This document shows, in pieces, positions 7,360-62,077 of a stretch of 64,000 bases of DNA. The notes beneath the pieces were generated by a model that saw only the letters and a list, made by a program, of their open reading frames with translations, did no database searches and was not told the origin of the DNA. Position numbers and translations under genes: made by a program. Location of the stretch: contig DATETY010000069.1 of assembly GCA_035283365.1 (NCBI GenBank), forward strand, positions 21,432-85,431, read 5' to 3'. The number at the start of each line of letters is the position of its first letter. Positions within the stretch are counted from its first letter, which is position 1. This DNA is from Thermoplasmata archaeon. Its GTDB lineage: Archaea; Thermoplasmatota; Thermoplasmata; RBG-16-68-12.

Positions 7360-7371
7360 CGGGCCCCCGGG

Positions 7372-8058: not shown

Positions 8059-8123
8059 GCCCGCGGCGGGTATGTACCCTAGGGTCGGAACCTTGAACCC
8101 GCCGCGCGCGCCAGGCCGTCCGG

Positions 8124-8537: not shown

Positions 8538-8589
8538 GGCCGCGAGCGACCCTTCAAGTGGGACGGACGGCATGGGCCGGTGCGAGACG

Positions 8590-9384
8590 ATGGCCGACCC
8601 GACCGTGGAGATCGCCCAACTCTGGAAGTCGTACGACGGGACGCCGGCCCTCCAGGGGCTCTCCCTCCGGGCGGCACCGGGCGAGATCGTCGGCCTCATC
8701 GGCCCCAACGGGGCGGGCAAGACGACGACGCTCAAGATCCTCGTGGGGCTCCTGCGGCCCGACGCGGGCGTGGTCCGGGTCCTGGGCCGGGACGTCCTCG
8801 CGGACCCGGTCGGATACAAGGCGGCGATCGGGTACATGCCCGAGCTGCCGACCCTCCCGGACTACCTGACCGCGGCCGAGTTCCTCGGATACGTGGGGCG
8901 CATCCGGGGGATGCCGCGGTCGGGCCTCGGGGCCCGCACGCGGGAGCTCCTGCGCGGCCTGGACCTCGCGCCCAAGGCGGACGAGACGATCGCGTCCCTG
9001 TCCAAGGGGATGAAGGCGAAGCTCGCCTTCGCGGCCGCGACGATCCACGATCCGGACCTGCTCATCCTGGACGAACCCCTCATCGGGGTGGACCCGGCCG
9101 GGCAGCACAAGCTCAAGGAGCACCTCGTCGGGGTCGCGCGGGCCGGCGGCACGATCCTCGTGTCGACCCACCAGCTCGACACGGCGGAGAGGCTCTGCTC
9201 GCGGGTCGCGATCGTCCACCACGGGCGCGACGTGGCCACGGGCGACCTCGCGGGGCTCCGGGGTCTCGCCCAGGCGTCCGGGGACAGCAGCCTGGAGGCC
9301 GTGTTCCTCAAGCTCACGCAGGAGACGCCGGCCTCCATGGAGCCCGAGCGTCCCAGGCCGCGGGGCTGGTTCCGGAGAGGATGA
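8590..9384 (+). CDS. ABC transporter ATP-binding protein
   Basis: Walker A GPNGAGKTT, signature LSKGMKAKL, Walker B LLILDEP, H-loop STHQL. I prefer ATG 8590 over track ATG 8572 because a TATA-like CTTCAAG lies at 8552-8558. Confidence 0.9.
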   Translation: MADPTVEIAQLWKSYDGTPALQGLSLRAAPGEIVGLIGPNGAGKTTTLKILVGLLRPDAGVVRVLGRDVLADPVGYKAAIGYMPELPTLPDYLTAAEFLGYVGRIRGMPRSGLGARTRELLRGLDLAPKADETIASLSKGMKAKLAFAAATIHDPDLLILDEPLIGVDPAGQHKLKEHLVGVARAGGTILVSTHQLDTAERLCSRVAIVHHGRDVATGDLAGLRGLAQASGDSSLEAVFLKLTQETPASMEPERPRPRGWFRRG

Positions 9385-40392: not shown

Positions 40393-40465
40393 TCAGAAGG
40401 ATATAGATGGGATGGGTAGTCGCGACACCCCTCAGAGCTGACCTTCCCCCGATCAGGTGAGGACC

Positions 40466-43400
40466 GTGTTTCTCAAAGAGATCCAGATGGAGAACTTCAA
40501 GTCATTCGGGCGAAAGATCTCGGTTCCGTTCCTCCAAGGCTACACGACGATCACGGGACCGAATGGCTCCGGGAAGAGCAACATCTCGGACGCAATCCTG
40601 TTCGTCCTCGGGCCGAAGAGCTCGAAGGCGATCCGCGCGGGGAAGCTCACGGACCTCGTGTGGAACGGCGGGAAGGACCGCAAGGGGTCCGACTACACGC
40701 AGGTCAGTCTCGTCTTCGACAACTCGGACCGGGGGCTCCCTGTCGAGGCCGATGAGGTCAAGCTCACGCGGTACGTCGGCCTGAGCGCAAGCGTCGAGGG
40801 CGGGTACAACTCGTACTTCTACATCAACGACCGGAAGTCCTCCCTGGCGGAGTTCGACCAGCTCCTCGCCCACGGCCGGATCAGCGCGGAGGGCTACAAC
40901 CTGGTCCAGCAGGGGGACGTCCAGAAGATCGTCTCGATGTCCTCCGTGGACCGCCGCCGGATCCTGGACAACATCGCGGGGATCACGAAGTTCGACGACG
41001 ACATCCACCAGGCCGAGGGGAAGCGGAAGGAGACGGAGGAGAACCTCGAGCGCATCCGAATCATCCTCGAGGAGATCGAGAAGCAGCTCAAGCAGCTCGA
41101 GGCGGACCGGGAAGGAGCCCTCAGGTACAAGGAGCTCAACGAGCGCCTCTCGACCGCGCGGGCCCAGCTCGCGTACAAGAACCGCGAGTTGATCGAGAGC
41201 CAGATCGTCGGAACGAAGGAGGCCATCGCGAAGCACGAAGCGGACCGGGCGAAGCTCCTCGCGCAGCGGGACGAACTGAGGACGCGGCTCGAGGCCGCCC
41301 AGACGCGTCTCGGGGAGCTCGAGGTCGAGATGGCGGAGCGCGGGGGCGAGGAGGCGAAACAGACGAAGCAGAAGCTCGACGCCCTGCGCATCGAGCGGGC
41401 GCGCGCGACGGACGGGATCGAGACGTCCAAGGAGACCCTCAAGCAGCTGCGGCTCGACGCGGGCGAGGCGTCGAAGGAGCAGGGGAAGGTCCTCAAAGAG
41501 GTCGACGCGCTCGGGCGGGAGCGGACGAACCTCGAAGCCCGCATCGCGGAGCTCGACTCGGCCCTCAAGGAGGCCGACGAAAACCTGAAGGAAGTCGACC
41601 AGCTCGCGTCGAAGAGCGACGCGAAAGTTCTCACGATCCAGAAGGAGATCATCGCCCTGAACAAGAAGGCGGACGAGCTCGAGGACCGGCTCAAAGCCCT
41701 CGTGCTCGAGGGGGACCGGACGAAGGAGTCGATGGTCCGGCTCGAATCGGAGATCGCGCAGCTCGAGGAGTCCCGCAAGACGTACCAGGTCGAGTTCGAC
41801 GACGCGGACTGGCAGCTCAAGGAACTCAAGTCGTCCACGAAGGAGACGGGGAAGAGCCTCCAGAAGCTCCAGCAGGAGTTCTACGGGCGCCGCCGGGAGG
41901 AGGCCGAGCTGTCGAAGCAGCAGACGGAGCTCCAGCAGGCCCTCCTCACGCTGACCCGGCAGTACGCGCAGCTCAAAGCGGAGGCCGACGTCGCGGAGAA
42001 CATGCGGAAGGGCTACTCGACCGCGGTGTCCGCGATCCTCGAGGCCCGCGAGACGGGGACCCTCAAGGGGGTCCACGGGACGGTGGCCCAGCTCGCCCAT
42101 GTGGAGACCCAGTACGAGACCGCGATCATCACGGCCGCGGGGTCGCGGATGCAGGCGATCATCGTGGACGACGACGGGGTCGCGGCGGGGTGCATCGACT
42201 ACCTGAAGAAGCGCCGGATCGGGCGCGCGACATTCCTCCCTCTCAACAAGATGCTCGTCGGGAAGCCGCGAGGCAAGGCGATCCTCGTAGCGAAGGAGTG
42301 CCTCGGCTTCGCGATCGACCTGTGCCACTTCGACGAGAAGTACCGGGACGCGTTCTTCTACGTGTTCGGAGACACCCTCGTCGTGAAGACCCTCGACGAG
42401 GCCCGCAAGTGGATGGGCGGGGTGCGCCTCGTGACCGTCGAGGGCGAGCTCATCGAGGCGAGCGGGGCGATGGTCGGCGGGGACATGGAGAGGACCCAGC
42501 TCAAGTTCGGATCGTCGTCCGCGAGTGAGCTCGAGAAAGTCGCGGAGAAGCTCCGCGAGGTCCAGGCCCAGTCCGAGACGGTCGCGTCCCGGCTCGAGGA
42601 CGTGCGCCGGGACATCCTCGACCTCGAGGGTCAGCTCAAGGACCACGGGAGCCAGACGGGCGCGGTCGACGTGAGGACGAGCGCGCTCGAGGCCAAGCGG
42701 AAAGACTTCCAGGCGAAGCTGGCCGCGAACGGGAAGGACCTCGAGGATCGCAAGAGGCGGTTCGAGGAGGCCCAGACGACCGCGGAGCGCCTCCAGGAGG
42801 ACCTCGCGAAGTTCACGAAGGGACTCGACGAAGTGCGGAAGAAGCGGGACGAGCGCAAGAAGGCGGTCATCGACGCGACGCCCCAGCAGATCGCGACCCG
42901 GATGAAGGAGCTCATGGCCCGGCGCGCCACCGTCGCGGAGGAGATCACGGGACACCGGTCCAAGATCGAGGCGATGGCGGACCAGCTCCGGATCCTCGAG
43001 GACCGGCGGACCGAACTCGAGACCCGAACGGGCTCCCTCGACGCCCAGAGGAAGGAGCACGAGAAACGCATCGACGGATTCGAGTCGGCCCTGGGCCGCC
43101 TCGAGAACGAGATCCGCGGCCTCGAGAAGATGGAGATGCAGCTCGCGAAGAAAATGAAGGACATCCAGGACGCCCGCGACGCCGCGTACAAGGAGAAGAC
43201 GGACGCCGAGGCGGACCTCGACAAGGCGACCCACAAGATCGAGACGAAGGAGGACTTCCTCCTCAAGATGGAGACGGAGCTCAAGGTCCAGGAGGACCAG
43301 CTCGCGGAGGCGGAACGGGTCATGCAGGAGATGGCCGTCGAGATCAAGCAAGGCAAGCTCCCGTCCCTCGAGGAGCTCAGGCGCACGATCAACGAGTCCG

Positions 43401-44053
43401 AGACCCTGATCGGGGCCCTCGGCCCGATCAACCTACGGGCCCTCGAGGACTACGAGGCCCAGGAGACCCGGCACGGCGAGCTCAAGGAGGAGTTCGCCCG
43501 GCTCGAGGGGCAGCGTCAGGAGCTGATTAACCTCGTCGAAGAACTCACCGAGAAGAAGAAGGGCGGCCTGTCCAAGGTCTTCGACGCGATCAACGAGAAC
43601 TTCAAGCGCGTGTACGCGGAGCTCAGCGAGGGAGGCGAGGCGGAGCTCGTCATCGAAAACCCCGACAAGCCGTTCGATGCGGGGCTCATCGTGAAGGCGA
43701 AGCCGCCCCACAAGAAGGTCTTGCGGCTCGAGGCCCTCTCGGGCGGCGAGAAGTCCCTCGTCTCCATGGCGTTCATCTTCGCGATCCAGGAGTACGACCC
43801 GTCCCCGTTCTATCTCCTCGACGAGATCGACCAGAACCTGGACGCGGTGAACGCGGAGAAGGTCGCCCGGATGATCCGGCGGAACAGCCACACGGCCCAG
43901 TTCGTCCAGATCTCCCTCCGGAAGGCGACCATCAAGGAGGCGGACCACATCGTCGGCGTGACGATGACGCCCGCGTCGATCAGCGAGCTCCTCATGCGCG
44001 TGAACCTCGCGGACATCGAGGACGAGAAGACGGTCGAGGCGGTGACCGCGTGA
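40466..44053 (+). CDS. smc: chromosome segregation protein SMC
   Basis: Walker A GPNGSGKSN, long coiled coils, a hinge (GVHGTVAQL...RATFLPLNKM), signature LSGGEKSL and Walker B FYLLDEIDQNLD. I prefer GTG 40466 (MFLKEIQMENFKSFG) because GGTGAGG lies 4-10 nt upstream. The track start is GTG 40457. Confidence 0.95.
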   Translation: MFLKEIQMENFKSFGRKISVPFLQGYTTITGPNGSGKSNISDAILFVLGPKSSKAIRAGKLTDLVWNGGKDRKGSDYTQVSLVFDNSDRGLPVEADEVKLTRYVGLSASVEGGYNSYFYINDRKSSLAEFDQLLAHGRISAEGYNLVQQGDVQKIVSMSSVDRRRILDNIAGITKFDDDIHQAEGKRKETEENLERIRIILEEIEKQLKQLEADREGALRYKELNERLSTARAQLAYKNRELIESQIVGTKEAIAKHEADRAKLLAQRDELRTRLEAAQTRLGELEVEMAERGGEEAKQTKQKLDALRIERARATDGIETSKETLKQLRLDAGEASKEQGKVLKEVDALGRERTNLEARIAELDSALKEADENLKEVDQLASKSDAKVLTIQKEIIALNKKADELEDRLKALVLEGDRTKESMVRLESEIAQLEESRKTYQVEFDDADWQLKELKSSTKETGKSLQKLQQEFYGRRREEAELSKQQTELQQALLTLTRQYAQLKAEADVAENMRKGYSTAVSAILEARETGTLKGVHGTVAQLAHVETQYETAIITAAGSRMQAIIVDDDGVAAGCIDYLKKRRIGRATFLPLNKMLVGKPRGKAILVAKECLGFAIDLCHFDEKYRDAFFYVFGDTLVVKTLDEARKWMGGVRLVTVEGELIEASGAMVGGDMERTQLKFGSSSASELEKVAEKLREVQAQSETVASRLEDVRRDILDLEGQLKDHGSQTGAVDVRTSALEAKRKDFQAKLAANGKDLEDRKRRFEEAQTTAERLQEDLAKFTKGLDEVRKKRDERKKAVIDATPQQIATRMKELMARRATVAEEITGHRSKIEAMADQLRILEDRRTELETRTGSLDAQRKEHEKRIDGFESALGRLENEIRGLEKMEMQLAKKMKDIQDARDAAYKEKTDAEADLDKATHKIETKEDFLLKMETELKVQEDQLAEAERVMQEMAVEIKQGKLPSLEELRRTINESETLIGALGPINLRALEDYEAQETRHGELKEEFARLEGQRQELINLVEELTEKKKGGLSKVFDAINENFKRVYAELSEGGEAELVIENPDKPFDAGLIVKAKPPHKKVLRLEALSGGEKSLVSMAFIFAIQEYDPSPFYLLDEIDQNLDAVNAEKVARMIRRNSHTAQFVQISLRKATIKEADHIVGVTMTPASISELLMRVNLADIEDEKTVEAVTA

Positions 44054-45718: not shown

Positions 45719-48700
45719 GTGAGCGGATTCCTCCGGGACAGCGCGCTGCGTCGGCAGCTCGAGGAGAAGGTCAAGGAGGCCACCCGAACCCGGGGCGTCG
45801 CGGAGGAGGCCCTCAAGGCGGCCCGCGAAGTCCTGGACGCCGCGAAGCGCATCGACGCGGACATCGGGGTGGCCCAGGAGCCCCTCGCGGAAGCCGAGAG
45901 CGCCTTCGGCGCGAAGGACTACAGGCTCGCGGCGGACAAGGCCGCGGAGGCGAAGGAGCGCGGCCAGCGCCTGTACCGCGGCCGCGCGGAGGCGATCGTC
46001 ACCTCGAGCGAGTCCCTCGCGAACCTGGCCCGGAGCGTGGGTGGGGAGCTCGGGGAGGCGGAGTCCGCCCTCAAGAAGGCCCGGGATGCCCTCTCCTCGG
46101 ACGACCTGACCAATGCGGTGGACCAGGCGAAGAAGGCATGGAAGCGCGGGGAGAAAGTCCTCCACGAGCATCTGTCCCTCTCGTTCTCGAAAGCCCAGTC
46201 CCTCATCCTCACCGCGAAGAACCTGGGGCGCGAAGTCGCCCCGATCGAGGACCTCCTGTCCCGCGCTCGGACCGGGATGGACTCGAACGACTACGACTCG
46301 GCAGTCTCCTTCACGAAGGAGGCTCTCGCCACGATCACGGACGACCTCCGCGCGAACCTGGACGGGGAGATGCGCGAGGCGGAGGACCTCATGCGGACGG
46401 CCCAGGAGCTCGGGGCCGACGTGACGCGCCCGTCCGGGCTCATCGAGCGGGCCCGCGGGGACCTCGAGAACCTGGACTTCGAGAAGGCCCGCAACGCGTT
46501 CCGGCAGAGCCGCGGGGAGTCCGAGAAGGCCCTCCAGAAGAGCCTCGACGGGAAGGTCGCGAACTTCGCGAAGTTCCTCGACGAGGCCACGGGCCTCGGA
46601 GCGGAGACGTCTGCGGCCGCGGAACGTTTCGACCAGGCGGAAGCCGCGATCAAGAAGGGCGACTACAAGACGGGAGGCCGGCTCGCGAAGGAAGGCTTCC
46701 AGGTCGTCCAGCAGGCCCAGTTCACGCGGGTGCTCCAGACCGTCGCGGCGTCCCGCGAGAAGTTCGTGGCCGCCATGAATCTCGGCGCCGACGTGTCCGG
46801 CCCCGTCGCGACCCTCAACAAGGCCCGGGAGGCCCTCCAGCGGAACGCGTTCCGCGAGGCGATCGACTGGGCGAAGAAGGCGGACGAAGGGGTCGAGCAA
46901 GTCCTCGGACGGTACCGGTCCGCCGAGCTCAAGCTCCGGGACCTGCACCGGGCCATGGCGGAGGCGGAGGCCCTCGGTGTCTCCACGACGAACGCTCGCC
47001 GCTTCTCGGAGCAAGCCCGGGAAGCGTACCAGAACCGGAACCCGGACGGCCTCGATCGGGCCCTCGGATCCGCACTCGAGGAGCTCCGCCGGTCGGAACA
47101 CGAGCGGACCATGCAATCGATCGAGCAGGCGGAGTTCATCCTCACCCTCGGGGAGCGGAACGAGGCGGACCTCGGGGAAGCCCAGACGCTCCTCGAGGGG
47201 TCCATCGTCGCCGCGAAGGCCCAGGAGTACCGGAAGGCGCTCGACCTCGCGGGGAAGGCCGCGAGCCGGGCGGACGACGGACTGCGTCGCCGCGTGGCGG
47301 ACGGCCTCGCGGTCCTCCGGAACGTCCTGCCCCACCTGGGGGAGGAGGCGTCCACCGTGAAGGTCCTGCTGAACCGAGCGGAGGCGTCCGTGACGGCCCG
47401 GGACTTCGAGGGTGCGTTCGGAGCGATCGCGGAGGCCCGGGGCCTCGTGGAGCGCCGCACGGCGGGACTCGCCTCCCAGGCCGTCGAGGACCTCGGGACG
47501 ATCGTCGCGATGGGGCTCGACCTCGGCGCGGACATCGGGGGCGTCGAGGCCCTGTACAAGGAGCTCAACGGCCACCTCGGGGCCGGCCGGCCGAGCGAGG
47601 TCCTCGCGGGGCGGGACCGGGTGCGGTCCACCCTCGCGACGGCCTCCGACGGCCTGTTCAACCTCGTGAAGAACCGCGTCGCGCAGGCGAGGGACCTCAA
47701 GATCGACATCGAGGAGATGCGGGACCTCCTGAAGCGGTCCAAGGTCGCCCTGAGCATCGAGAACTACCACGAGGGCCTCGGCTTGCTCAGGGAGTGCAAC
47801 GACCGGGCCCGCAAGGCGACCGCGATGTACCGTCAGGCCCAGACGGCTCTCGCGAGCGCGGCCGCGTTCGCCGCGGAGGCGCGCAAGAGGGACGTCGACG
47901 TCGGGAGAGTCCTCGAGATCCTCCTCGAGGGAAAGCGCGCGTTCGAGCAGCTCGACTACGGGAAGTCGATCGATCTCGCCGCGAAGGCCCGCGCGGAGAC
48001 GGGGAAACTCCTCGTCCTGTACACGTCCGCCCAGAAGATCGTGTCCAGCCGGGAGCGGATGGACCTCGCGACGCGCCTCGGGATCGACGCGCCCCATCTC
48101 CGGGACGCCCTCACGGACGCGAAGGAGTCGATGAAGGCGAAGGACTACGAACGGGCGTTGGCGAACGCCCAGCGCGTCGAGCAGGAGATCACCTCCCTCA
48201 TCGGGCAGAGGATCGCATCCCTCCTCGAGGCGACGGAAGCCGCGGTGGGCAGCGTCCAGGGGGCGAACCTCGCGGCCCTGAACGACGAGATCGTGAAGGC
48301 GCGGCAGTACCTTGGGGCGGGCCAGTTCGCGCCCGCGGCGGATGCCTCCCTCCGGCTCAAGGACCAGCTCGACCGGCTCACGCGGCAGGGCGAGGAAGCG
48401 GACGGGGCGATCCGTCGGGTCCGGGAGCTCATCGCGGACGCGGAAGGGATGAACGTCGAGCTCGTCGCGACCTCGCGCCTCCTTGAGCGTTCCCTGCGCG
48501 CGTTCAAGATGGCCCAGTTCGACGAGGCCCTCGACCACGCGGCGCAGGCGGAGGCCGAGGCCACGAAGGAACGGGATCAGGCGATCGCGTCCCTGATGGC
48601 CCAGTTCCAGGAGTCGATCGAGCGGGCCAAGAGGGAGGGGACGGACACTCGGAGCGCGGAGCGGCTCCTCGACCGCGCGCGGGAGTTCTTGCGCGGGAAG

Positions 48701-50206
48701 AAGTACCGCCAGGCCCTGGCCCTCGCGGAACAGAGCGAGGGGGAGGCGGAGCGGATCGGGCTCCAGCAGAAGATGGCGGCCCAGGCCCTCCAGACCGCGG
48801 AGCGGAAGCTCCAGGGCCTCGGGTTCCCGGTCCCTCCGGTGGCCCACGCGCTCGACGAGGCGAAGCGCGGGTTCGCCTCGGCCGACTACGTGAAGGCCCT
48901 CGACGCCGCGATCAAGGCCTCGGACGCCCTCACGGACATCCGGAACGAGCTCGGGGAGCTCCACAAGGCGAGGGACCGCGTGCAAGCCCTCCTCGCGACC
49001 GTTCAGGAGGTCGGCGCGGAGACGGTCAAGCTCATCCAGATCTTCGACGAGGGCGAAGCGGCCCTCCACGTGGGCGACGTGACGAAGGCGCGCGCCGCGT
49101 ACGCGCAGGCGACGGAGTGGGCGACGGGCGTCCTGAAGAACCACCTCCGGGACCTGCTCGCGCGGGCGAGCGGGATCACGGAGACGGGCCGCCGGATGCA
49201 GATCGACCCGACCGCGGCCCTGAACCACCTCGCGGAGGCCCGCTCCCGGATCGAGGCGGGGGACTTCGGGCTCGCGTACAAGGCGATCCAGTCGGGCCAG
49301 CGGATCGCGGAAGTCGCCCTCGGCACGAAGTTGAACGAGGCGATCCTGCAGGCCGCGGACAACGTGACCCATGCGAAGAAGCTGGGCACGGACGCCCGGG
49401 AGGCAGAGGACATCCTCCGGCAGGCCCGCGCACGGATCGAGCGCATGGAGTACGACGGGGCCCTGGAGCTCACGGAACGGGCCCTCGAGAAGGTCGAGTC
49501 CGTGAAGGTCGTCGAGAAGCGGTTCGTCGACCTCACGTACAAGGCGGAGTCGACGATCCGGAACGGGAAGAAGTTCGGGGTCGACATGCGCCCCGCGGAG
49601 CGCCGGCTCGCGGACTCCATGGCCCTCCGGAAGACGAACCTCGCGGACGCAATCAAGGCTGCAGAGGAAGCGTACCGGCTCGGGTGGGACGCCGTCGAGG
49701 AGTTCGCCCCCGCGATGGAGGCGGGCCTCGAGATGGGCCCCACGAAGCTCAACGAGTGGACGGACGCGACCCTCACCCTGATGAACGTCGGGAAGGGGCT
49801 CGCCAAGGACGTCCGGGTGAAGATCCTAGGGGACGCGGAGACGGAGGGTCTCCAAGACGTGCCCGCGGTCCGCGCGAAGGGCCAGGAATCCCTCCGTATC
49901 CGGATCAAGATGACCGCCTCGGGGAGCGTCCCCCTCGCGATCCAGATCACCTCCCACCGCGTGCTCGACGACAAGGCGTACACCCAGGAGATGATCGCGC
50001 AGATCGAGGTCGCGGAGGACGCGATCGAACGGCCCAAGAGGCTCGTCGCGGACCTGGAGACCCGCTGCCCGATCTGCAAGGGGATGATCAAGAAGGGGTT
50101 CAAGGTCCTACGTTGCGGATGCGGCCGCGACTTCCACGAGCTGTGCGCGTCCCGGATCGGTCGGTGCCCCGCCTGCTTCCGTCCGCTCGGGACGGCCGCG
50201 GGCTGA
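45719..50206 (+). CDS. giant cytoplasmic helical-repeat protein with C-terminal beta-sandwich and C4HC3 RING/PHD-like zinc finger
   Basis: 1495-aa ORF, GTG start, with no signal peptide or TM helix. It holds about 21 tandem ~62-aa repeats, a CARDB-like segment (LTLMNVGKGLAKDVRVKILGD...) and a terminal CPICKGMIKKGFKVLRCGCGRDFHELCASRIGRCPAC. Confidence 0.85.
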   Translation: MSGFLRDSALRRQLEEKVKEATRTRGVAEEALKAAREVLDAAKRIDADIGVAQEPLAEAESAFGAKDYRLAADKAAEAKERGQRLYRGRAEAIVTSSESLANLARSVGGELGEAESALKKARDALSSDDLTNAVDQAKKAWKRGEKVLHEHLSLSFSKAQSLILTAKNLGREVAPIEDLLSRARTGMDSNDYDSAVSFTKEALATITDDLRANLDGEMREAEDLMRTAQELGADVTRPSGLIERARGDLENLDFEKARNAFRQSRGESEKALQKSLDGKVANFAKFLDEATGLGAETSAAAERFDQAEAAIKKGDYKTGGRLAKEGFQVVQQAQFTRVLQTVAASREKFVAAMNLGADVSGPVATLNKAREALQRNAFREAIDWAKKADEGVEQVLGRYRSAELKLRDLHRAMAEAEALGVSTTNARRFSEQAREAYQNRNPDGLDRALGSALEELRRSEHERTMQSIEQAEFILTLGERNEADLGEAQTLLEGSIVAAKAQEYRKALDLAGKAASRADDGLRRRVADGLAVLRNVLPHLGEEASTVKVLLNRAEASVTARDFEGAFGAIAEARGLVERRTAGLASQAVEDLGTIVAMGLDLGADIGGVEALYKELNGHLGAGRPSEVLAGRDRVRSTLATASDGLFNLVKNRVAQARDLKIDIEEMRDLLKRSKVALSIENYHEGLGLLRECNDRARKATAMYRQAQTALASAAAFAAEARKRDVDVGRVLEILLEGKRAFEQLDYGKSIDLAAKARAETGKLLVLYTSAQKIVSSRERMDLATRLGIDAPHLRDALTDAKESMKAKDYERALANAQRVEQEITSLIGQRIASLLEATEAAVGSVQGANLAALNDEIVKARQYLGAGQFAPAADASLRLKDQLDRLTRQGEEADGAIRRVRELIADAEGMNVELVATSRLLERSLRAFKMAQFDEALDHAAQAEAEATKERDQAIASLMAQFQESIERAKREGTDTRSAERLLDRAREFLRGKKYRQALALAEQSEGEAERIGLQQKMAAQALQTAERKLQGLGFPVPPVAHALDEAKRGFASADYVKALDAAIKASDALTDIRNELGELHKARDRVQALLATVQEVGAETVKLIQIFDEGEAALHVGDVTKARAAYAQATEWATGVLKNHLRDLLARASGITETGRRMQIDPTAALNHLAEARSRIEAGDFGLAYKAIQSGQRIAEVALGTKLNEAILQAADNVTHAKKLGTDAREAEDILRQARARIERMEYDGALELTERALEKVESVKVVEKRFVDLTYKAESTIRNGKKFGVDMRPAERRLADSMALRKTNLADAIKAAEEAYRLGWDAVEEFAPAMEAGLEMGPTKLNEWTDATLTLMNVGKGLAKDVRVKILGDAETEGLQDVPAVRAKGQESLRIRIKMTASGSVPLAIQITSHRVLDDKAYTQEMIAQIEVAEDAIERPKRLVADLETRCPICKGMIKKGFKVLRCGCGRDFHELCASRIGRCPACFRPLGTAAG
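45791..49708 (+). repeat. about 21 degenerate tandem protein repeats of ~62 residues (~186 nt) inside the giant gene
   Basis: The anchor motif (L)G-x-[DE]-[VIT] recurs at residues 46, 110, 172, 234, 296, 358, 422, 484, 543, 605, 663, 727, 790, 850, 912, 976, 1037, 1101, 1163, 1225 and 1289, with spacing of 58-64. Each anchor is followed by LL..A[RK]..[LF]...[DN][YF]..A...A. Confidence 0.8.
50066..50176 (+). other. C4HC3 zinc-finger signature (RING-CH/PHD-like) at the C-terminus of the giant protein
   Basis: C-x2-C-x12-C-x-C-x4-H-x2-C-x6-C-x2-C, read directly from residues 1450-1486. Confidence 0.7.
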
Positions 50207-55888: not shown

Positions 55889-57184
55889 GTGCGCGGGGGG
55901 CGCCCGCTGAACGAGGACGTCGCGTTCATCCACGGCCAGGTGGACCGCCACCACGCATGGTTCGCCACGTGCCTTCCCATGATCGCCTCCGAGAACGTGA
56001 TCAGCCCGCTCGCCCGCGAGCTCCTCGTGAGCGACTTCGGGGACCGGTACGCGGAGGGCTGGCCGCGGGAGCGGTACTACCAGGGCCTCACGTACGTGGA
56101 CGAGGTCGAGGAGCGCGTGATCGCGCTCGCGAAGCGCCTCTTCCACGTCCGCCACGCGGACTCGCGGCTCGTGAGCGGGACCGTGGCGAACATGGCCGTG
56201 TACTTCGCCCTTCTCGAGTACGGGGACATCATGACGTCCGTGGCCCTGAGCCACGGGGCGCACATCTCGTCCGCGAAGTTCGGCGCGGCGGGGTTCCGGG
56301 GCGTCCACAACGTGAACTATCCGTTCGACGTGGAACGGATGAACATCGACGTGGACGGGACCGCGAGGCTTCTCCGGCAGGTCCGCCCGAAGGTCGCCGC
56401 GTTCGGCCAGAGCGTGTTCCTGTTCCCGACCCCACTCAAGGAGCTGCGGGACGCGTTCCAAGAGGCGGGTTGCCACGTCTGGTACGACGGCGCGCACGTG
56501 ATCGGCCTCATCGCGGGCGGGATGTTCCAGGATCCCCTCCACGAGGGCGCCGACGTGATGACGGGCTCCACCCACAAGACCCTCCCGGGCCCCCAGCACG
56601 GCATCCTGCTCTCCGACTCCGACGACGAGAAGTTCGTCAAGCGCCTCGTGAAGGCCGTCTTCCCCGGCGTCGTGTCGAACCACCACCTCCACGCGATGGC
56701 CGCCCTCGGGGTCACCCTCGCGGAGCACCTCGAGTTCGGCCGCGCGTACGCGGAGCAGATCGTGAAGAACTCGAAGGCGCTCGCCCAGGCCCTCCACGAG
56801 CGCGGGATCAAGGTCCTCGCGGAGAAGCACGGGTTCACGGAGAGCCACACGGTCGCCCTGGACGTCGCCGCGGTCGGGGGCGGCGCGAAAGTCGCGACGG
56901 ACCTCGAGCGGGCGAACATCATCACGAACAAGAACCTCCTCCCATGGGACACGTCCCCCGTGAAGCCGAGCGGCGTGCGGCTCGGGACCCAGGAGCTCAC
57001 CCGCCTGGGGATGAAGGAGCCCCAGATGCGGGAGGTCGCGGACCTGATCGCCCGCGTCGCGCTCAAGGGAGAACCCCCCGCGAAGATCGCCGCCGACGTC
57101 GGGGCGATGCGGCGGGACTTCAACCGGGTGCACTACTGCTTCACGCCGGACGCGGAGGCCCACCGACGCTGGCGGATCACTTGA
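55889..57184 (+). CDS. glyA: serine hydroxymethyltransferase
   Basis: Carries IASENVISP, RYAEGWPRERYYQG and the PLP motif TGSTHKTLPGPQHG. There is no in-frame ATG before IASEN, so GTG 55889 is the best candidate start. It is the last 431 codons of track ORF 54782..57184. Confidence 0.9.
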   Translation: MRGGRPLNEDVAFIHGQVDRHHAWFATCLPMIASENVISPLARELLVSDFGDRYAEGWPRERYYQGLTYVDEVEERVIALAKRLFHVRHADSRLVSGTVANMAVYFALLEYGDIMTSVALSHGAHISSAKFGAAGFRGVHNVNYPFDVERMNIDVDGTARLLRQVRPKVAAFGQSVFLFPTPLKELRDAFQEAGCHVWYDGAHVIGLIAGGMFQDPLHEGADVMTGSTHKTLPGPQHGILLSDSDDEKFVKRLVKAVFPGVVSNHHLHAMAALGVTLAEHLEFGRAYAEQIVKNSKALAQALHERGIKVLAEKHGFTESHTVALDVAAVGGGAKVATDLERANIITNKNLLPWDTSPVKPSGVRLGTQELTRLGMKEPQMREVADLIARVALKGEPPAKIAADVGAMRRDFNRVHYCFTPDAEAHRRWRIT

Positions 57185-57761
57185 GGGAGTCCGCGCGCAC
57201 GTTGAGGAGCACGTCCACGAGGTGGCGGAACCCGTCCTCGACGCCTCGCCCCGTCTTCGCGCTCGTGTACGACCAGGGCCAGCCGCGCGCGTGGCAGAAC
57301 GCGTCGATCTCGGACTCCTTCACAGCCCGGTCCGCCTCGAGGTCCGCCTTGTTCACCACGACGTACGTCGGGACATCGCCCGCGACGGCTCGGATCGAAC
57401 GGGCCCACGCGTCGAGCTCGCCGAGGGTCTCCTCCCGGGTCAGGTCCGCGACCGCGAGGATGCCCTGGGCTCCGTGATAGTACGCCTCCTTGAGGAGCTC
57501 GCGCAACGTCCGGGTGCCCATCACGTCCCAGAGGATCGTGTGGACCTCCACGAGCTTGCTGGTCAGGGGGTCCGTCGCGATGAGGGATTTCTTCGAGACC
57601 TTCGTGCCCAGGGTTGCCACGTACCGGTCGTCGTACTCATCGAGGACGTACCTCCGGATCAGGGACGTCTTCCCGACGGCCGCCTCCCCGGCCATGCACA
57701 CCTTGAGCTTCACGGTGTCCGCCGTGAACACGGGCTCTCCCGGGGCGATCGGCGGGCTCAC
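57177..57761 (-). CDS. Ras/Rab-like small GTPase
   Basis: 194 aa with G1 GEAAVGKT, switch I YVATLGT, G3 WDVMG, G4 NKAD and G5 TSAK. Its GTG start overlaps the upstream stop (GTGA). Its 3' end overlaps the convergent glyA by 8 nt. Confidence 0.9.
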   Translation of the reverse strand: MSPPIAPGEPVFTADTVKLKVCMAGEAAVGKTSLIRRYVLDEYDDRYVATLGTKVSKKSLIATDPLTSKLVEVHTILWDVMGTRTLRELLKEAYYHGAQGILAVADLTREETLGELDAWARSIRAVAGDVPTYVVVNKADLEADRAVKESEIDAFCHARGWPWSYTSAKTGRGVEDGFRHLVDVLLNVRADSLK

Positions 57762-58087
57762 GGCTCGTGCGCCTCCGCGCTTTGGCGGGCCGATTCCGCG
57801 GCTTCCCGGTCCCCGAGGAGGCCGTGCAGCTTCGCCTTGAAGATCCAGGCTCCCGGGTATCTCGGATCGATCCGCAGGACCCGCTCGAGTACGGACAGGC
57901 CCCCGCCCACATCGCCGTCCCGGAGCCGGAGGGCCGCGAGGACGAACAGCGCGTCCACGTCGTCCGCGTTCGCGCGGAGCCGTTCGCGCACGAGGGCGTC
58001 CGTGTCGGGACGTTCATGGGTCACGGGGTTGATCTCCTCGAGAGAAGGCGGCTCGGGGCGGGACGCGAACTCCTGATCGGGCCGCAT
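57758..58087 (-). CDS. small TPR protein
   Basis: ATG 58087 gives 109 aa with two TPR-like units (DALFVLAALRLRDGDVGGGLSVLERVLRIDPRYPGAWIFKAKLHGLLGDREAA). Track start 58195 would overlap the upstream gene by 52 nt. Confidence 0.65.
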   Translation of the reverse strand: MRPDQEFASRPEPPSLEEINPVTHERPDTDALVRERLRANADDVDALFVLAALRLRDGDVGGGLSVLERVLRIDPRYPGAWIFKAKLHGLLGDREAAESARQSAEAHEP

Positions 58088-58143
58088 GCAGGCCGGCCCA
58101 ATTAAACATTCTTGCGCAGAATTGAACGGAGAATGCGAACATG

Positions 58144-59550
58144 TCAACGGAACCTGGGAATTCGGGTCCTCGCGCGACGGGCCCAGTCCGTCCACGCGCG
58201 GCCCCGGTAGCCGCCGCCGAGGAGGGTCCGGACCGCGGGGGCCGCGCGGTCCAGCTTGCTGATCCGACCGTCCCAGTTCGCCAGGGCCGGGCCGTGGGCG
58301 TCCTCGATCTCCTGGACGGCAGCCTGGAGCTGGGGAAGCAGGTACCGCACGTCGCCGCGGGACAGGATCGCCGCGAGCACGACGTGCTTCCCGCGCACGA
58401 TCGCGGCGTGCCGTCCCCCGAACGCGAACTCGTCGAGGGTCGCCTCGCTCCGGAACGAATCGCGCACGAACTCCTGGATCGCGACGAGCATGGACGCGAC
58501 GAGGTCGTCGTCCTTCTTGAGCGCGGGCCCACGACTCTGGTGGTGGATCAGGAGCCCGCTCCGGTGCATGAGGAAGACCTCGTCGATCCGGAGGCGCCGT
58601 TGGCCGAGGAACAGGAGGACGATGATGGCTCCCAGGACGGGCAGGACGAGGGCCGCGAGGGCGGCGAGGAGGCCCTCGGGCGGCACGATGGCGGTCGGGA
58701 GTACGACGATCGCGGCGTCCAGCGTGATCGACGGCACGGGGCGACGGTCGTAGTCCTCGTATGCGAACACGAGTCGGATCAGGAGGGACTCCCCGGCCGA
58801 CGAATTCGTCGGGAGCAGGACCTCGAACTCAAGACCCTGCGCGCTGCCCGAGGTGAGCTCCGGGACGAACAGCGTGAGGTTCGTTCCCTCGTCGATCACG
58901 AGGCGGGCGTCCGGGACGATCGTCACGCTCACGTTCCAGGCCGAATCGGACGCGTCCCGCTCGTTGAACACCTCGACGCGCACGTTCACCTTCTCCCCGG
59001 CCCGGATGGCGGCGAGGAGCGGGTCCACCTCGAAGCGCAGGACAGAGCCCCGGACGTCCACGGCCGCGACGCCCCCAGGAGGCGTCGTGTACGTGCCCCC
59101 GGAGAAGGTCGTCGCGCTGATCGTCGCGTTCGCGGCGCCGACGGCCGCGTTGGGCCCGACGGCCGCATCGATCGTCCATCTGATGGAGCCCGAGCGAAGG
59201 CCCGTACACTCCCAGGACAGGGCCCCGGTCCGGGAGCACTGCGACGGCCCCGTCGCGTTCGACGTGTCCGGGATCAGGTCCGACTCGAAGCTGAGGTTCA
59301 CCCACGCGACCTGGAGGGACCCCGAGCCCGTGAGGTTCAGCCAGGCATTGAACCGGACGGGGTCCGTGCGGCCCGCCGCCGTCGCGTCCGCGACGATCGC
59401 GACGGATCCGCCCGGCACGGCGGGCGACGCCCCGAGGCCGGGCGCACCGGCCGCGCGGGGCCCGGCGAGGACCGCCAGGACGACGAAGAATAGGGCGAGC
59501 GCGGCGAGGAATCTCACGGGATCCCGAATCTCATGGGGACGGCCGCTCAT
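58144..59550 (-). CDS. type I membrane protein: sequon-rich beta ectodomain + TM + cytoplasmic Roadblock/LC7/MglB-like domain
   Basis: 468 aa. It has an N-terminal hydrophobic signal/anchor, 7 N-x-S/T sequons and a TM helix at aa ~293-316. The C-terminal VFLMHRSGLLIHH...DDLVASMLVAIQEFVRDSF...LDEFAFGGRHAAIVRGKHVVLAAILS matches MglB block by block. Confidence 0.8.
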   Translation of the reverse strand: MSGRPHEIRDPVRFLAALALFFVVLAVLAGPRAAGAPGLGASPAVPGGSVAIVADATAAGRTDPVRFNAWLNLTGSGSLQVAWVNLSFESDLIPDTSNATGPSQCSRTGALSWECTGLRSGSIRWTIDAAVGPNAAVGAANATISATTFSGGTYTTPPGGVAAVDVRGSVLRFEVDPLLAAIRAGEKVNVRVEVFNERDASDSAWNVSVTIVPDARLVIDEGTNLTLFVPELTSGSAQGLEFEVLLPTNSSAGESLLIRLVFAYEDYDRRPVPSITLDAAIVVLPTAIVPPEGLLAALAALVLPVLGAIIVLLFLGQRRLRIDEVFLMHRSGLLIHHQSRGPALKKDDDLVASMLVAIQEFVRDSFRSEATLDEFAFGGRHAAIVRGKHVVLAAILSRGDVRYLLPQLQAAVQEIEDAHGPALANWDGRISKLDRAAPAVRTLLGGGYRGRAWTDWARRARTRIPRFR

Positions 59551-59672
59551 GGACTTTGCGCCGCGGTTATCGAATGGCCGTTCCTATGGAGAAACCGATG
59601 GCGAGGCGAGAACCTTTATATGGATAGGTCCGCATCGGCACGCTCCGGTCGGACGACGAGGGACGGGGCGGC

Positions 59673-60533
59673 TTGCTTGACGAGCTGAAGCTGAAGAGAG
59701 AACGCGAGAACGCGGAGGCGGAACGCCACCGCCGGCGGCGCGACGAACTCAACGACAAGACGCGCGAGTGGGTCGCGAAGCGGGACGAACTGAACGCACA
59801 GGTGCGCGGTCTCGTAGAGGAGGCGACCGGGCACCGGATCAAGCGGGACGAGCTCAACGCGGAGGTCAAGAAGGCGAAGGAGGAGCGGGACATCTGGAAC
59901 CGCAACCGGAACGAACTCCTCGACAACCTCAACGAGGTGAAGCGGCGGAAGCTCCCGCGGGGCGCGATCCCCGTCGGGAAGCTCAAACGAGACCTGAAGG
60001 CCCTCGAGTTCAGGCAGATGACCTCCGTCCTCACGGTGGACAAGGAGCGCGCGCTCATCGAGGAGATCCAGCGCCTCCAGGCCGAGGTGAAGCGGCTCGA
60101 GAAGTCCCTCGAGGAGAACGAAGAGGTGAAGGCCTTGATCGCCACGCTGAAGGACGCGGAGGACCGGGCCGAGGCGGCCCACCGCCGGGTCGGGCAGCTC
60201 GCGGAGCAGGCCCAGGCGGAGCACGACCTGATGACCAGCCTGTACGAACAGTCCGACGAGCTCCGCCGGCAGGCGGACAACGCCCAGGAGGAGTTCATCA
60301 AGACGAAGATGCTCGCGGACGAGGAGCACCGGAAGCACATCGAGCACATCCGCCAGGTCCACGACTACGACAAGATCGTGCAGGGGATCTGGCTGAAGGA
60401 GCGCACGACGACGGGCGTGGAGGAGGAGGTCGACGCGAGGCGCCAGGCCGAGGAGATCTTCGAGCGCTTCAAGAAAGGGGAGAAGCTCTCCACGGAGGAT
60501 CTCATGACCCTCCAGAAGAGCGGGTACCTTTGA
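59673..60533 (+). CDS. archaeal coiled-coil protein (COG1340-like)
   Basis: 286 aa, TTG start, heptad-rich and highly charged (KRDELNAQV..., KRDELNAEVKKAKEERD...). CTTTATAT lies at 59614-59621. Confidence 0.7.
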   Translation: MLDELKLKRERENAEAERHRRRRDELNDKTREWVAKRDELNAQVRGLVEEATGHRIKRDELNAEVKKAKEERDIWNRNRNELLDNLNEVKRRKLPRGAIPVGKLKRDLKALEFRQMTSVLTVDKERALIEEIQRLQAEVKRLEKSLEENEEVKALIATLKDAEDRAEAAHRRVGQLAEQAQAEHDLMTSLYEQSDELRRQADNAQEEFIKTKMLADEEHRKHIEHIRQVHDYDKIVQGIWLKERTTTGVEEEVDARRQAEEIFERFKKGEKLSTEDLMTLQKSGYL

Positions 60534-60733: not shown

Positions 60734-62077
60734 ATGGTCCTCGAGAAGCTCGGCTCCTCCCTGCGCGACGCCCTGCGCAAGATCGCGGGCTCGAGCTACG
60801 TCGACGAGGCCCTCATCAAGGAGATCGTCCGGGACATCCAGCGGGCCCTTCTCCAGGCGGACGTGAACGTCCAGCTGGCCCTCGGGATCACGAAGCAGCT
60901 CCAGCGCCGCGCCCTCGAGGAGTCCCCGCCTGCGGGGATGAGCCCGCGGGAGCACGTGGTCCGGATCATCTACGAGGAACTCGTGAAGGTCCTCGGCACG
61001 TCCCGGGAGGTCCCGATCCAGAAGCAACGGATCCTGCTCGTCGGTCTGTACGGCCAGGGGAAGACGACGACCGCGGGGAAGCTCGGGAAGTACTTCCAGA
61101 AGAAGGGCCTGAATGTCGGGCTCGTCGCGGCGGACGTCCACCGCCCCGCGGCATACGACCAACTTCGTCAGATCGCGGACCAGATTAAGGCCCCGTTCTA
61201 CGGGGAGCCGGGCGGGAAGGACGCGGTGAAGATCGTGAAGGCGGGCCTCAAGGCCCTGGAAGCCGCGGACGTCGTGATCGTGGACTCGTCCGGGCGGCAC
61301 GCCCTCGAGCCGGACCTGATCGAAGAGATCAAGGCGGTCGGGAAGGCGTTCGCGGCGGACGAGCGGCTCCTCGTCGTGGATGCGACGATCGGGCAGCAGG
61401 CGGGGCCCCATGCCAAGGCGTTCCACGACGCGGTCGCGATCACGGGGGTCATCGTGACGAAGCTCGACGGGACCGCGAAGGGGGGCGGGGCCCTGAGCGC
61501 CGTCGCGGAAGTCCAGGCGCCCATCGTGTTCATCGGCATCGGGGAGAAGCTCGACGACTTGGAGCGGTTCGAGCCGCCGCGGTTCATCTCCCGCCTCCTC
61601 GGGATGGGGGACCTCGAGTCCCTCCTCGAGAAAGCCCAGGAGACGATCGACGAGGCGAAGGCGGAGGAGCTCACGAAGAAGATCCTCGCGGGGAAGTTCA
61701 CCCTCAACGAGATGTACGACCAGATCGAGATGCTCACGGACATGGGCCCCATGAAGCGGCTCGCCTCGATGATCCCAGGCGTCGCGGGGAAGATGAAGGA
61801 GGAGGACATGGAAGGGACCCAGGTCCGCCTCCGGCGGTTCAAGGTGATCATGGACTCCATGACGGAGGACGAGATGACGGAGCCGAAGAGCGTGAAGTCC
61901 TCCCGGGTCCAGCGGATTGCGCGCGGGGCCGGAGTCGCCCCGAAGGACGTGAAGGAGCTCCTCCGGCATTACGAGATGGCCCGGAAGGCGATCAAGGGCT
62001 TCGCGGGGAACCGCAAGATGCGGAAGCAGCTCCTCAAGCAGCTCGAGGCCGCCGGGATGAGCGCGCCCCAGGAGTGA
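60734..62077 (+). CDS. srp54: signal recognition particle protein SRP54
   Basis: 447 aa with GLYGQGKTTT, VDSSGR, TKLDGTAKGG and a Met-rich M domain. CTTAAT box at 60703-60708. Confidence 0.95.
   Translation: MVLEKLGSSLRDALRKIAGSSYVDEALIKEIVRDIQRALLQADVNVQLALGITKQLQRRALEESPPAGMSPREHVVRIIYEELVKVLGTSREVPIQKQRILLVGLYGQGKTTTAGKLGKYFQKKGLNVGLVAADVHRPAAYDQLRQIADQIKAPFYGEPGGKDAVKIVKAGLKALEAADVVIVDSSGRHALEPDLIEEIKAVGKAFAADERLLVVDATIGQQAGPHAKAFHDAVAITGVIVTKLDGTAKGGGALSAVAEVQAPIVFIGIGEKLDDLERFEPPRFISRLLGMGDLESLLEKAQETIDEAKAEELTKKILAGKFTLNEMYDQIEMLTDMGPMKRLASMIPGVAGKMKEEDMEGTQVRLRRFKVIMDSMTEDEMTEPKSVKSSRVQRIARGAGVAPKDVKELLRHYEMARKAIKGFAGNRKMRKQLLKQLEAAGMSAPQE

Follow-up and report, generated by a model that had tools for sequence, protein, structure and literature searches.

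A transmembrane protein with a predicted longin-type cytoplasmic domain adjoins a Ras-like small GTPase gene in Thermoplasmata

Introduction

Small GTPases and longin or roadblock platforms are central to eukaryotic membrane traffic and bacterial polarity, and the longin/roadblock sandwich serves as a small-GTPase docking platform in all domains of life. Among the prokaryotic GTPases, those of the Rup family are closest to eukaryotic Rab, Ras and Rho (PMC4316618). In the Group 1 Rup neighbourhood, a Rup GTPase without the catalytic Gln is accompanied by a coiled-coil protein, an output gene and a protein made of an unknown domain, a transmembrane (TM) helix and OmpA, which is 'often' present; no fold was assigned to the unknown domain (PMC4316618). 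Here we analyse an operon of three genes from a Thermoplasmata archaeon (GTDB lineage RBG-16-68-12), which encodes a membrane protein that we call mem, a small tetratricopeptide repeat (TPR) protein and a Rup-type small GTPase. Our main subject is memC, the cytoplasmic domain of mem. The operon lies in a stretch of 64,000 nucleotides of contig DATETY010000069.1 (positions 21,432 to 85,431, forward strand), referred to below as the window, in which the coordinates of Table 1 are counted.

The actinobacterial conservon (CvnA-D/Mfp) has been proposed to be a signalling module whose parts, a membrane sensor, a roadblock protein and a small GTPase, share a single operon (PMC4316618). For bacterial MglA, a G3 motif has been described in which Thr replaces the conserved Asp (TxxG) (PMC3000849). 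In Haloferax volcanii, the ArvABC (OapABC) operon carries ArvB (DUF2073) and ArvC (a DUF2072 zinc ribbon) downstream of arvA; ArvA is annotated as PF01926, its closest family is Arf (PF00025), and its homologues are widespread in Euryarchaeota (PMC10927574). At the level of fold, roadblock is a circular permutant of longin, whose sandwich packs a single helix against one side of the sheet and two against the opposite side, and helix a1 provides the GTPase-binding and dimer face in longin/roadblock complexes (PMC3747258).

A first-pass annotation of the window had read mem as a receptor-like Roadblock/MglB protein that regulates the neighbouring GTPase from outside in. That interpretation is partly supported by the analysis below, in which function is inferred from sequence and structural models.

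Results

Three conserved genes form the locus

The open reading frames (ORFs) listed for the window include mem, TPR and GTPase as three co-oriented minus-strand ORFs, at the coordinates already given by the first-pass annotation (Table 1). Spurious long ORFs are frequent in the G+C-rich DNA of the window (~69% G+C). These three are nevertheless real genes: conserved homologues exist for all of them, and above-threshold Pfam matches for two (Ras, 9.2e-28; TPR_14, 1.9e-5). The housekeeping genes around the locus are archaeal, namely those for an archaeal-type S-adenosylmethionine (SAM) synthetase, serine hydroxymethyltransferase (SHMT) and SRP54.

The mem-TPR-GTPase block is kept in ~30 related uncultured Thermoplasmata contigs (L001-L031), so that the three-gene neighbourhood is indeed co-conserved. 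The GTG start of the GTPase gene overlaps the TPR stop as GTGA, as can be read directly in the sequence, and the same 4-nt overlap is found between the called genes of relatives (L001, 7771/7768; L003, 7776/7773; L008, 5902/5899). In L006 it joins a fused mem-TPR gene to the GTPase gene (7707/7704). The translational coupling that had been proposed from this overlap may therefore apply.

mem is predicted to be a glycosylated, single-pass membrane protein

Hydropathy and an AlphaFold2 (AF2) model of full-length mem (27-sequence alignment, mean predicted local distance difference test score [pLDDT] 83) concur on the layout of the protein, for which we aligned 27 homologues of 37-64% identity. 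Taken with the Pfam matches, they uphold the architecture first proposed for the locus: an ectodomain, one TM helix and a cytoplasmic alpha/beta domain, followed by a TPR protein and a Ras-like GTPase.

The ectodomain carries seven N-x-S/T sequons, precisely at the positions previously listed (N72, N85, N98, N141, N206, N224 and N249). They take up 7 of its 11 Asn residues, against 1.8 +/- 1.2 expected (20,000 shuffles; P = 4e-4). In 26 mem homologues there are 6-14 sequons on the outside and almost none inside, and in the homologue alignment N72 and N85 are at least 90% conserved while C105 and C115 are invariant. Given this enrichment and conservation of sequons and the invariant Cys pair, an N-out, glycosylated and probably disulfide-bonded ectodomain is well supported.

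A Foldseek search with the full-length model returned only generic immunoglobulin (Ig)-like matches for the ectodomain, among them integrin alpha calf/thigh domains (legs), transglutaminase C-terminal barrels and adhesin Ig domains, with query-normalised template modelling scores (TMq) of ~0.24. Neither this search nor a Pfam/NCBIfam scan revealed a recognisable ligand-binding domain in the ectodomain. An integrin-like reading of the ectodomain was not adopted, as the window protein matches generic Ig-like legs at that low score; FG-GAP repeats are confined to DHVE2-type relatives. The full-length fold search was swamped by the Ig-like matches and was uninformative on the cytoplasmic domain, and a domain-only model was therefore made.

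memC is predicted to adopt a longin-type fold

The cytoplasmic domain begins 2-3 residues past the TM helix and spans ~145 aa (aa 321 to ~465), which makes it longer than the ~110 aa originally assigned to it. It is far better conserved than the ectodomain in the mem homologue alignment, and a whole-protein scan gave no Pfam or NCBIfam match to it at E<=1. The domain-only AF2 model (38 sequences, pLDDT 86.8, predicted template modelling score 0.79) runs b1-b2-a1-b3-b4-b5-a2 and ends in two short helices. The full-length model gives the same order, and in the models the only helix ahead of b1 is the TM helix.

When this model was compared with the PDB using Foldseek, 50 of the 50 listed matches were longin or roadblock domains, most of them from GTPase-regulator complexes (E 2e-4 to 1.5e-3). 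The best whole-domain superposition was with the Mon1/Ccz1 longins (5ldd, Mon1-Ccz1-Ypt7; 157-159 aligned columns, TMq 0.62). AP sigma subunits reached a target-normalised score (TMt) of up to 0.72, and TRAPP Bet5/Trs23 was also matched. The roadblock matches comprised MglB (1j3w, 3t12), LAMTOR2/p14-MP1, 9jq8 and 3kye (E 2.6e-4 to 1.5e-3, TMt 0.42-0.69); MglB structures of T. thermophilus and M. xanthus (1j3w, 3t12, 3t1r and 6h5b) stood among the top matches, and the set took in an Asgard Roadblock2 and a Streptomyces Roadblock/LC7. The predicted memC sandwich, a five-stranded antiparallel sheet between helices, thus superposes on MglB/LAMTOR and on solved longin domains, and the prediction places memC in the longin/roadblock structural superfamily.

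The longin fold runs b-b-a-b-b-b-a-a, and the roadblock fold, which starts with a helix, runs a-b-b-a-b-b-b. In the AF2 models the order of memC fits longin, not Roadblock. At the level of sequence, phmmer with the domain, or a search with a profile of 23 diverse family members, matched no sequence in the PDB, those of MglB, LC7 and LAMTOR included, and Robl_LC7 (Pfam PF03259) had no match in the 23 members at E<=10. The sole Pfam family matched by more than one member was Fuz_longin_1 (FUZ/MON1/HPS1), below threshold (best E = 0.058, 2 of 23 members). The Roadblock/MglB assignment made by the first-pass annotation is therefore correct for the structural superfamily, where MglB itself appears among the Foldseek matches of the AF2 model, and does not extend to sequence or to element order. 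The 'block for block' alignment with Roadblock/LC7/MglB proteins on which it had relied was undetectable by Pfam, NCBIfam, phmmer and the family profile. On the evidence of the model, 'Roadblock/MglB' is the wrong family label for memC, the similarity of fold being at superfamily level.

Helix a1 is the most conserved element of the domain, with a mean top-residue frequency of 0.73 against 0.10-0.60 elsewhere in the 23 diverse members. Its family signature is D-D-L-V-A-S-M-L-V-A-I-Q-E-F-V-R-D-S-F, within which M354, Q359, F361 and V362 are invariant, as is F366 in the D-S-F motif just past the helix. In the C-terminal extension, the helices modelled by AF2 span aa 436-444 and 449-463, and D427, G428, G446 and R449 are invariant in the mem alignment.

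memC defines a large family and repeatedly adjoins Ras-family GTPase genes

An exhaustive hidden Markov model (HMM) search of 1.84 billion representatives, clustered at 50% identity, yielded 5,583 clusters with E<=1e-3, of which 4,245 had E<=1e-10; these are upper estimates for the domain, as the profile held part of the ectodomain. A word-indexed protein search misses the family, returning 2 proteins with the domain alone and 23 with the diverse-member profile. Going by these sequence searches, memC defines a large unnamed domain family. When each GTDB species was represented by one genome, scanning identified 112 stretches that encode the domain, and 80 loci were kept. In all family architectures the domain lies on the cytoplasmic side, beside the membrane.

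In the lineage of the window (Thermoplasmata, Euryarchaeota RBG and Methanobacteriota metagenome-assembled genomes), a divergent DUF7121 gene is always followed by mem, TPR and GTPase. In DHVE2/Aciduliprofundum-type archaea, a 1,587-aa FG-GAP and PKD protein ends in a TM helix and the domain, and a convergent gene for a 264-aa Ras-family GTPase abuts it. Two further loci (L035 and L038) hold 3-4 tandem paralogues followed by a co-directional gene for a 273-aa GTPase. In Proteobacteria, the domain stands between an N-terminal region and a TM helix in an OmpA fusion protein, which in 8 of the 8 loci that extend far enough has a coiled-coil protein gene, a gene for a Ras-family GTPase of 164-176 aa and a SpoIIE/PP2C phosphatase gene at its flanks; the GTPase gene was a neighbour in 7 of the 7 loci with downstream DNA. 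The window domain is homologous to that of the proteobacterial TM-OmpA protein (tblastn 1e-10 to 1e-13; phmmer 1e-12 to 1e-14). Ras-family GTPase genes thus adjoin the domain in four gene arrangements, archaeal and bacterial. Because small Ras-like GTPases occur in only 17% of prokaryotic genomes (PMC4316618), such repeated adjacency is unlikely to arise by chance.

Other arrangements were seen. About 35 Methanomassiliicoccales/Thermoplasmata loci encode giant surface proteins of 1,400-2,200 aa that end in a TM helix and the domain, and most family members overall are FG-GAP/PKD/Ig-rich surface proteins of 1,400-2,600 aa that carry the domain at their extreme C-terminus and have no GTPase gene close by. 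Four loci (L032, L036, L039 and L041) have two paralogues and a 91-100-aa TPR gene without a GTPase; in L037, which is cut by a contig edge and belongs with them, one paralogue is visible. L041 and L038 are syntenic and share the same convergent gene of ~510-560 aa downstream, with a TPR gene in L041 and a GTPase gene in L038. This shared gene (L041:8204-9736 (-); L038:6430-8118 (-)) was read as Elp3-like from its sequence alone. It converges on the domain cassettes in two otherwise differing Thermoplasmata lineages, and the same 95-aa and 151-aa genes follow it.

Several further features of the family were recorded. Some members contain the domain in duplicate or triplicate, or have it in mid-protein, in proteins of up to ~2,400 aa (P0052, 2,171 aa; P0059-P0066; others), and their sequences suggest multi-pass or multi-platform architectures. 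In 25 loci (L049-L075), a conserved gene for a multi-pass membrane protein of ~257 aa starts 0-16 nt past the stop of the giant gene; at the comparable P0036 locus the gene downstream of the giant was called DUF92. The GTPases of the DHVE2 type and of L035/L038 (264-273 aa; L044:6417-7211 (-), L038:5598-6419 (+)) have a C-terminal extension of ~100 aa that looks conserved between the two, with the pattern D-x-I-I-x-D-F … M-P-x-V-R-x-Q … A-G-V … E-V-E-x-x-F-K-G. In the L044 GTPase, Pfam matches the G domain only.

The GTPase is Ras-like and lacks the catalytic Gln

The window GTPase matches the Pfam families Ras (9e-28), Roc (1e-22), Arf (1.7e-9) and MMR_HSR1 (1.2e-3). It has the complete set of G1-G5 motifs claimed for it (GEAAVGKT, ATLGT, WDVMGT, NKAD and SAK), with the qualification that its G3 is without the catalytic Gln, the position being taken by Thr83. 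In an alignment of 47 GTPases encoded next to the domain, each of the 31 lineage relatives has Thr or Ala at this position, the bacterial loci have Glu, and the proteins of the DHVE2 and L035/L038 loci have Gln. Rap GTPases likewise carry Thr at the Gln position and depend on a residue supplied by a GTPase-activating protein (GAP). By analogy with Rap, the Thr83 GTPase may depend on a GAP, and its intrinsic hydrolysis is predicted from sequence to be low.

The best PDB sequence matches of the window GTPase are Rab21, Rab18 and a Thorarchaeota Rab (~1e-20, top score 79 bits). Pairwise comparison with the domain-neighbouring GTPases of other lineages gave 86-119 bits, and 56 bits for the disrupted copy in L086. 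No C-terminal lipidation motif is apparent in the window GTPase sequence.

The TPR protein goes with the C-terminal tail of memC

TPR_14 was matched with 25.3 bits, above the curated cut-off of 23.5 (E = 1.9e-5), over aa 81-123 of a 145-aa ORF. The start of the TPR gene is uncertain: the ATG at 58087 gives 109 aa, an in-frame GTG at 58024 gives 88 aa, and the open frame extends to a GTG at 58195. The TPR proteins of relatives have 88-89 aa, and conservation begins at about aa 21 of the window version. The gene lies directly downstream of mem in all relatives. In two of them, P0004 (568 aa) and P0009 (587 aa), a single reading frame joins TPR to the C-terminal tail of mem and the GTPase gene comes directly next; as noted above, cassettes of memC and TPR also occur without a GTPase. 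Because of these fusions and cassettes, gene arrangement ties the TPR protein to the C-terminal tail of the domain, and not primarily to the GTPase.

Table 1. Features of the operon and its surroundings (window coordinates)
Feature	Coordinates	Strand	Basis
mem, 468-aa type-I membrane glycoprotein gene	58144..59550	minus	ORF, ATG start; homologues; AF2 model
N-terminal hydrophobic helix of mem, aa 12-28, signal peptide or signal anchor	59467..59517	minus	AF2 helix; Kyte-Doolittle peak aa 8-37
Ectodomain of mem, aa ~45-288, two predicted Ig-like beta-sandwiches	58687..59418	minus	AF2 strands aa 47-284, pLDDT mostly >90
Single TM helix of mem, aa 291-318, then QRRLR (positive-inside)	58597..58680	minus	AF2; hydropathy maximum 2.96, aa 297-315
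memC core, aa 321-424, b1-b2-a1-b3-b4-b5-a2	58279..58590	minus	Domain-only AF2; Foldseek
C-terminal extension, aa 425-468: invariant W-D-G loop, two helices, G-G-Y-R motif, basic tail	58147..58278	minus	mem alignment; AF2
Small TPR protein gene	57758..58087	minus	Pfam TPR_14; 109 aa from ATG 58087
Ras/Rab-like (Rup-type) small GTPase gene, 194 aa	57177..57761	minus	Pfam Ras; GTG start
P-loop G-E-A-A-V-G-K-T, Ala at Ras Gly12 and Gly13 positions	57666..57689	minus	Read directly; alignment
G3/switch II W-D-V-M-G-T, Asp kept, catalytic Gln replaced by Thr83	57513..57530	minus	Alignment of 47 neighbouring GTPases
AT-rich element CTTTATAT	59613..59621	.	Sequence read directly
DUF7121 coiled-coil protein gene, divergent from mem	59673..60533	plus	Pfam DUF7121 7e-43

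Flanking genes and other features of the window

The gene for the DUF7121 coiled-coil protein is adjacent to and divergent from mem in 27 related loci, including L008 and L009, and its product is a possible fourth component of the mem system. The bacterial domain cassettes also begin with a coiled-coil protein; comparison of DUF7121 with this bacterial partner gave no homology above coiled-coil noise (blastp E = 0.086). The 122-bp divergent intergenic region between mem and DUF7121 contains CTTTATAT as its only AT-rich element in DNA of 69% G+C, which could be a candidate archaeal TATA box for both genes.

SRP54 is encoded at 60734-62077 (+), two genes from the mem/GTPase locus. In the eukaryotic SRP receptor, a longin-fold SRX domain pairs with SR-beta, a TM-anchored GTPase. 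The proximity of SRP54 to our locus is probably a coincidence, because no SRP54 gene was called in the ~3 kb past DUF7121 in L008 and L009. Downstream of the GTPase gene lies the convergent SHMT gene. With SHMT on one side and DUF7121/SRP54 on the other, no output gene (GGDEF/EAL, histidine kinase or PP2C) flanks the window operon.

Within the 64-kb window the domain and the small GTPase were each found only once, and no tRNA genes or Rfam families were detected. A bacterial-type promoter/terminator scan was uninformative, the host being an archaeon. Elsewhere in the window, a 1,495-aa ORF at 45719-50206 (+) has no Pfam match and, by eye, looks like degenerate alpha-helical repeats with a Cys-rich tail resembling a zinc ribbon. 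An SMC gene (40457-44053) lies two ORFs upstream of it, and the AT skew of this region is strongly positive. Positions 6001-10000 have a G+C content of 0.73-0.755, against a window average of ~0.69, and negative AT skew.

Discussion

A model for the operon

We consider it on balance probable that the operon encodes a membrane-tethered platform for a small GTPase. In such a complex, two copies of memC would pair via strand b3 and helix a1, as longin/roadblock domains do, and the conserved a1 'top' face of the dimer would dock the GTPase. The TPR protein may bind the C-terminal tail of mem as an adaptor that bridges or stabilises the complex, a role suggested because it is fused to this tail in two relatives and accompanies related genes without a GTPase. 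The Rup-type GTPase would be made in step with the TPR protein through the 4-nt overlap, and would reach the membrane only via the mem/TPR complex, since no lipid-anchor motif is apparent. Because the catalytic Gln is absent (Thr83) and Ala occupies the Gly12 position, the GTP/GDP state of the GTPase should depend on its partners; proteins acting as a GAP or a guanine nucleotide exchange factor (GEF) would set this state. The complex would thereby set the nucleotide state of the GTPase or its location. The ectodomain may couple surface contact or clustering to the state of the GTPase, which would amount to outside-in regulation of the GTPase by mem; alternatively, the GTPase may control the surface protein from the inside out.

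Several observations weigh against a platform of this kind. The fold assignment is a prediction built on 38 sequences with moderate Foldseek E-values (~1e-4), and no Roadblock or longin sequence-profile match above threshold was found with Pfam/NCBIfam, PDB sequences or the 23 members. The domain does not always travel with a GTPase gene: none was present within ~6 kb of the giant-protein genes (0 of ~35 loci), and three further domain contexts also lack one. That most family members are giant surface proteins without a GTPase gene nearby bears on the outside-in reading in particular, and there is no effector or output gene in the archaeal operon. Conservation within the window's own lineage says little by itself, because the whole neighbourhood, SHMT and SAM synthetase included, is syntenic there.

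Alternative explanations

The main competing explanation takes memC to be a general module of archaeal surface proteins for anchoring or oligomerisation in the cytoplasm, which ties them to each other or to an inner scaffold. The GTPase and TPR protein would then be lineage-specific accessories acting upstream, from the inside out; they would control the placement, clustering or turnover of the surface protein and would not receive its signal. The prevalence of giant surface proteins without a neighbouring GTPase gene fits this explanation, as does a window ectodomain of generic Ig-like sandwiches with no recognisable ligand-binding domain, and some longin domains, such as those of the longin SNAREs, do not bind GTPases (PMC3747258). 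However, the domain has come to adjoin Ras-family GTPases independently and repeatedly in archaea and bacteria, and bacterial members with a peptidoglycan-binding OmpA and no surface ectodomain still keep the GTPase, the coiled-coil protein and the PP2C phosphatase. Missing adjacency is also weak evidence, given that Asgard longin/roadblock genes are generally not in operons with GTPases (PMC10933270). We regard a pure anchoring role as somewhat unlikely, though it is the most serious competitor of the platform model.

The resemblance to longin and roadblock domains could also be a coincidence of modelling, with memC being some other alpha/beta module (e.g. a PAS/GAF/profilin-like ligand-binding or dimerisation domain) that has no platform role; in that case the genes would adjoin because they serve a shared process, without direct binding of their products. 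The domain indeed has no sequence-level relation to any known family, its Fuz_longin_1 matches are sub-threshold, and helix a1 is modelled less confidently than the sheet (block means of 75-79 vs 92-96 elsewhere). Longins, moreover, sit within a broader PAS/GAF-like fold space (PMC4917890). Yet PAS and GAF domains account for 0 of the 50 listed Foldseek matches, several independent longin and roadblock families were matched with scores of up to 0.62 (query-normalised) and 0.72 (target-normalised), and the full-length and domain-only models agree on the order of secondary structure. Such a coincidence appears improbable to us.

It is very unlikely that the three genes are functionally unrelated neighbours kept together by recent common descent. 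SRP54, SHMT and SAM synthetase are equally syntenic in the same relatives, as this would have it, but common descent of neighbours does not account for the mem-TPR gene fusion, the conserved 4-nt TPR/GTPase overlap, or a domain-GTPase pairing that recurs in unrelated contexts and in bacteria. Lastly, the link to arvABC drawn by the first-pass annotation fails and a divergent ArvABC-type (OapABC) vesicle-formation operon is scarcely credible here: although both are archaeal small-GTPase operons with two small or unknown partners in a euryarchaeal-grade lineage, and ArvA homologues are widespread (PMC10927574), Pfam finds neither DUF2073 (ArvB) nor DUF2072 (ArvC) in the window partners, the gene order differs, and the GTPase matches Ras (9e-28) far better than Arf (1.7e-9).

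Wider implications

The wider result is the structure-based identification, by way of predicted models, of a large membrane-tethered longin-like family. The locus exposes an unnamed, membrane-fixed domain that is found in thousands of metagenome clusters, has a predicted longin/roadblock fold and is joined to extracellular domains. A bolder proposal, which we think rather unlikely at present, is that memC is a true prokaryotic longin-type platform, widespread in Thermoplasmata's phylum Thermoplasmatota and in Proteobacteria, always on the inner membrane face and partnered with Rup GTPases. If that were true, the coupling of a Rab/Ras switch to a longin platform, known from Mon1-Ccz1, TRAPP and DENN GEFs, would be older than eukaryotes and would not be confined among prokaryotes to Asgard archaea. 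Its starting point would have been the cytoplasmic portion of a TM surface receptor, a prokaryotic counterpart of receptor-coupled small-GTPase signalling. Should the platform prediction hold, orphan Rup GTPases would gain a candidate regulator, and the cell surface would have a receptor-like link to a Ras-type switch in organisms without internal membranes. The missing catalytic Gln offers a clean handle for a biochemical test.

Comparison with known systems

ArvABC resembles the window locus as an archaeal three-gene operon around a small GTPase, and differs in that the window partners are encoded upstream, as a TM longin-like protein and a TPR protein, and the GTPase is Ras/Rab-like rather than Arf-like. 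The conservon divides sensor (a histidine kinase), roadblock protein and GTPase (of the MglA family) among separate proteins, whereas mem carries ectodomain and platform in one polypeptide beside a Rup/Ras-like GTPase. MglA-MglB shares with our locus a small-GTPase gene that adjoins a gene for a roadblock/longin sandwich domain, which in the window is predicted. Here, however, the domain is without a Robl_LC7 match, has the longin-type order and, tethered to the membrane, forms one polypeptide with an ectodomain. The GTPase also keeps Asp in its G3 (W-D-V-M-G) and is thus not MglA-type.

The eukaryotic platforms (Mon1-Ccz1, TRAPP, Ragulator-Rag, SR-alpha SRX/SR-beta) are alike in predicted fold and element order and in being membrane-associated platforms for a Rab/Ras-like GTPase. 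They are soluble or lipid-tethered multi-subunit complexes inside the cell, unlike mem, and in none of them does a TM helix connect the platform with an extracellular domain.

The nearest likeness is found in the Group 1 Rup system. The architecture, which had been put forward as one not recognised from any characterised system, is not wholly without precedent, since the proteobacterial loci that share the domain fit the 'Unc' partner of Group 1 Rup, matched by description only (PMC4316618). We found no later characterisation of the memC domain or its system in the literature. The window order is ectodomain-TM-domain, whereas the bacterial proteins run N-terminal region-domain-TM-OmpA; the window locus has neither OmpA nor an output gene, and has a TPR protein instead; and its host is archaeal, while the Group 1 described in 2014 was bacterial only (PMC4316618). 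What the two have in common is a Ras/Rab-like GTPase with eukaryote-like G1-G5, in which the G3 Asp is kept and the catalytic Gln is absent, and a GTPase gene that adjoins a protein with a conserved cytoplasmic domain, without Pfam match, set against a single TM helix. A coiled-coil gene is adjacent in the window too (DUF7121), with no detectable homology to its bacterial counterpart. Taken together, the window locus is probably an archaeal relative of the uncharacterised Group 1 Rup system.

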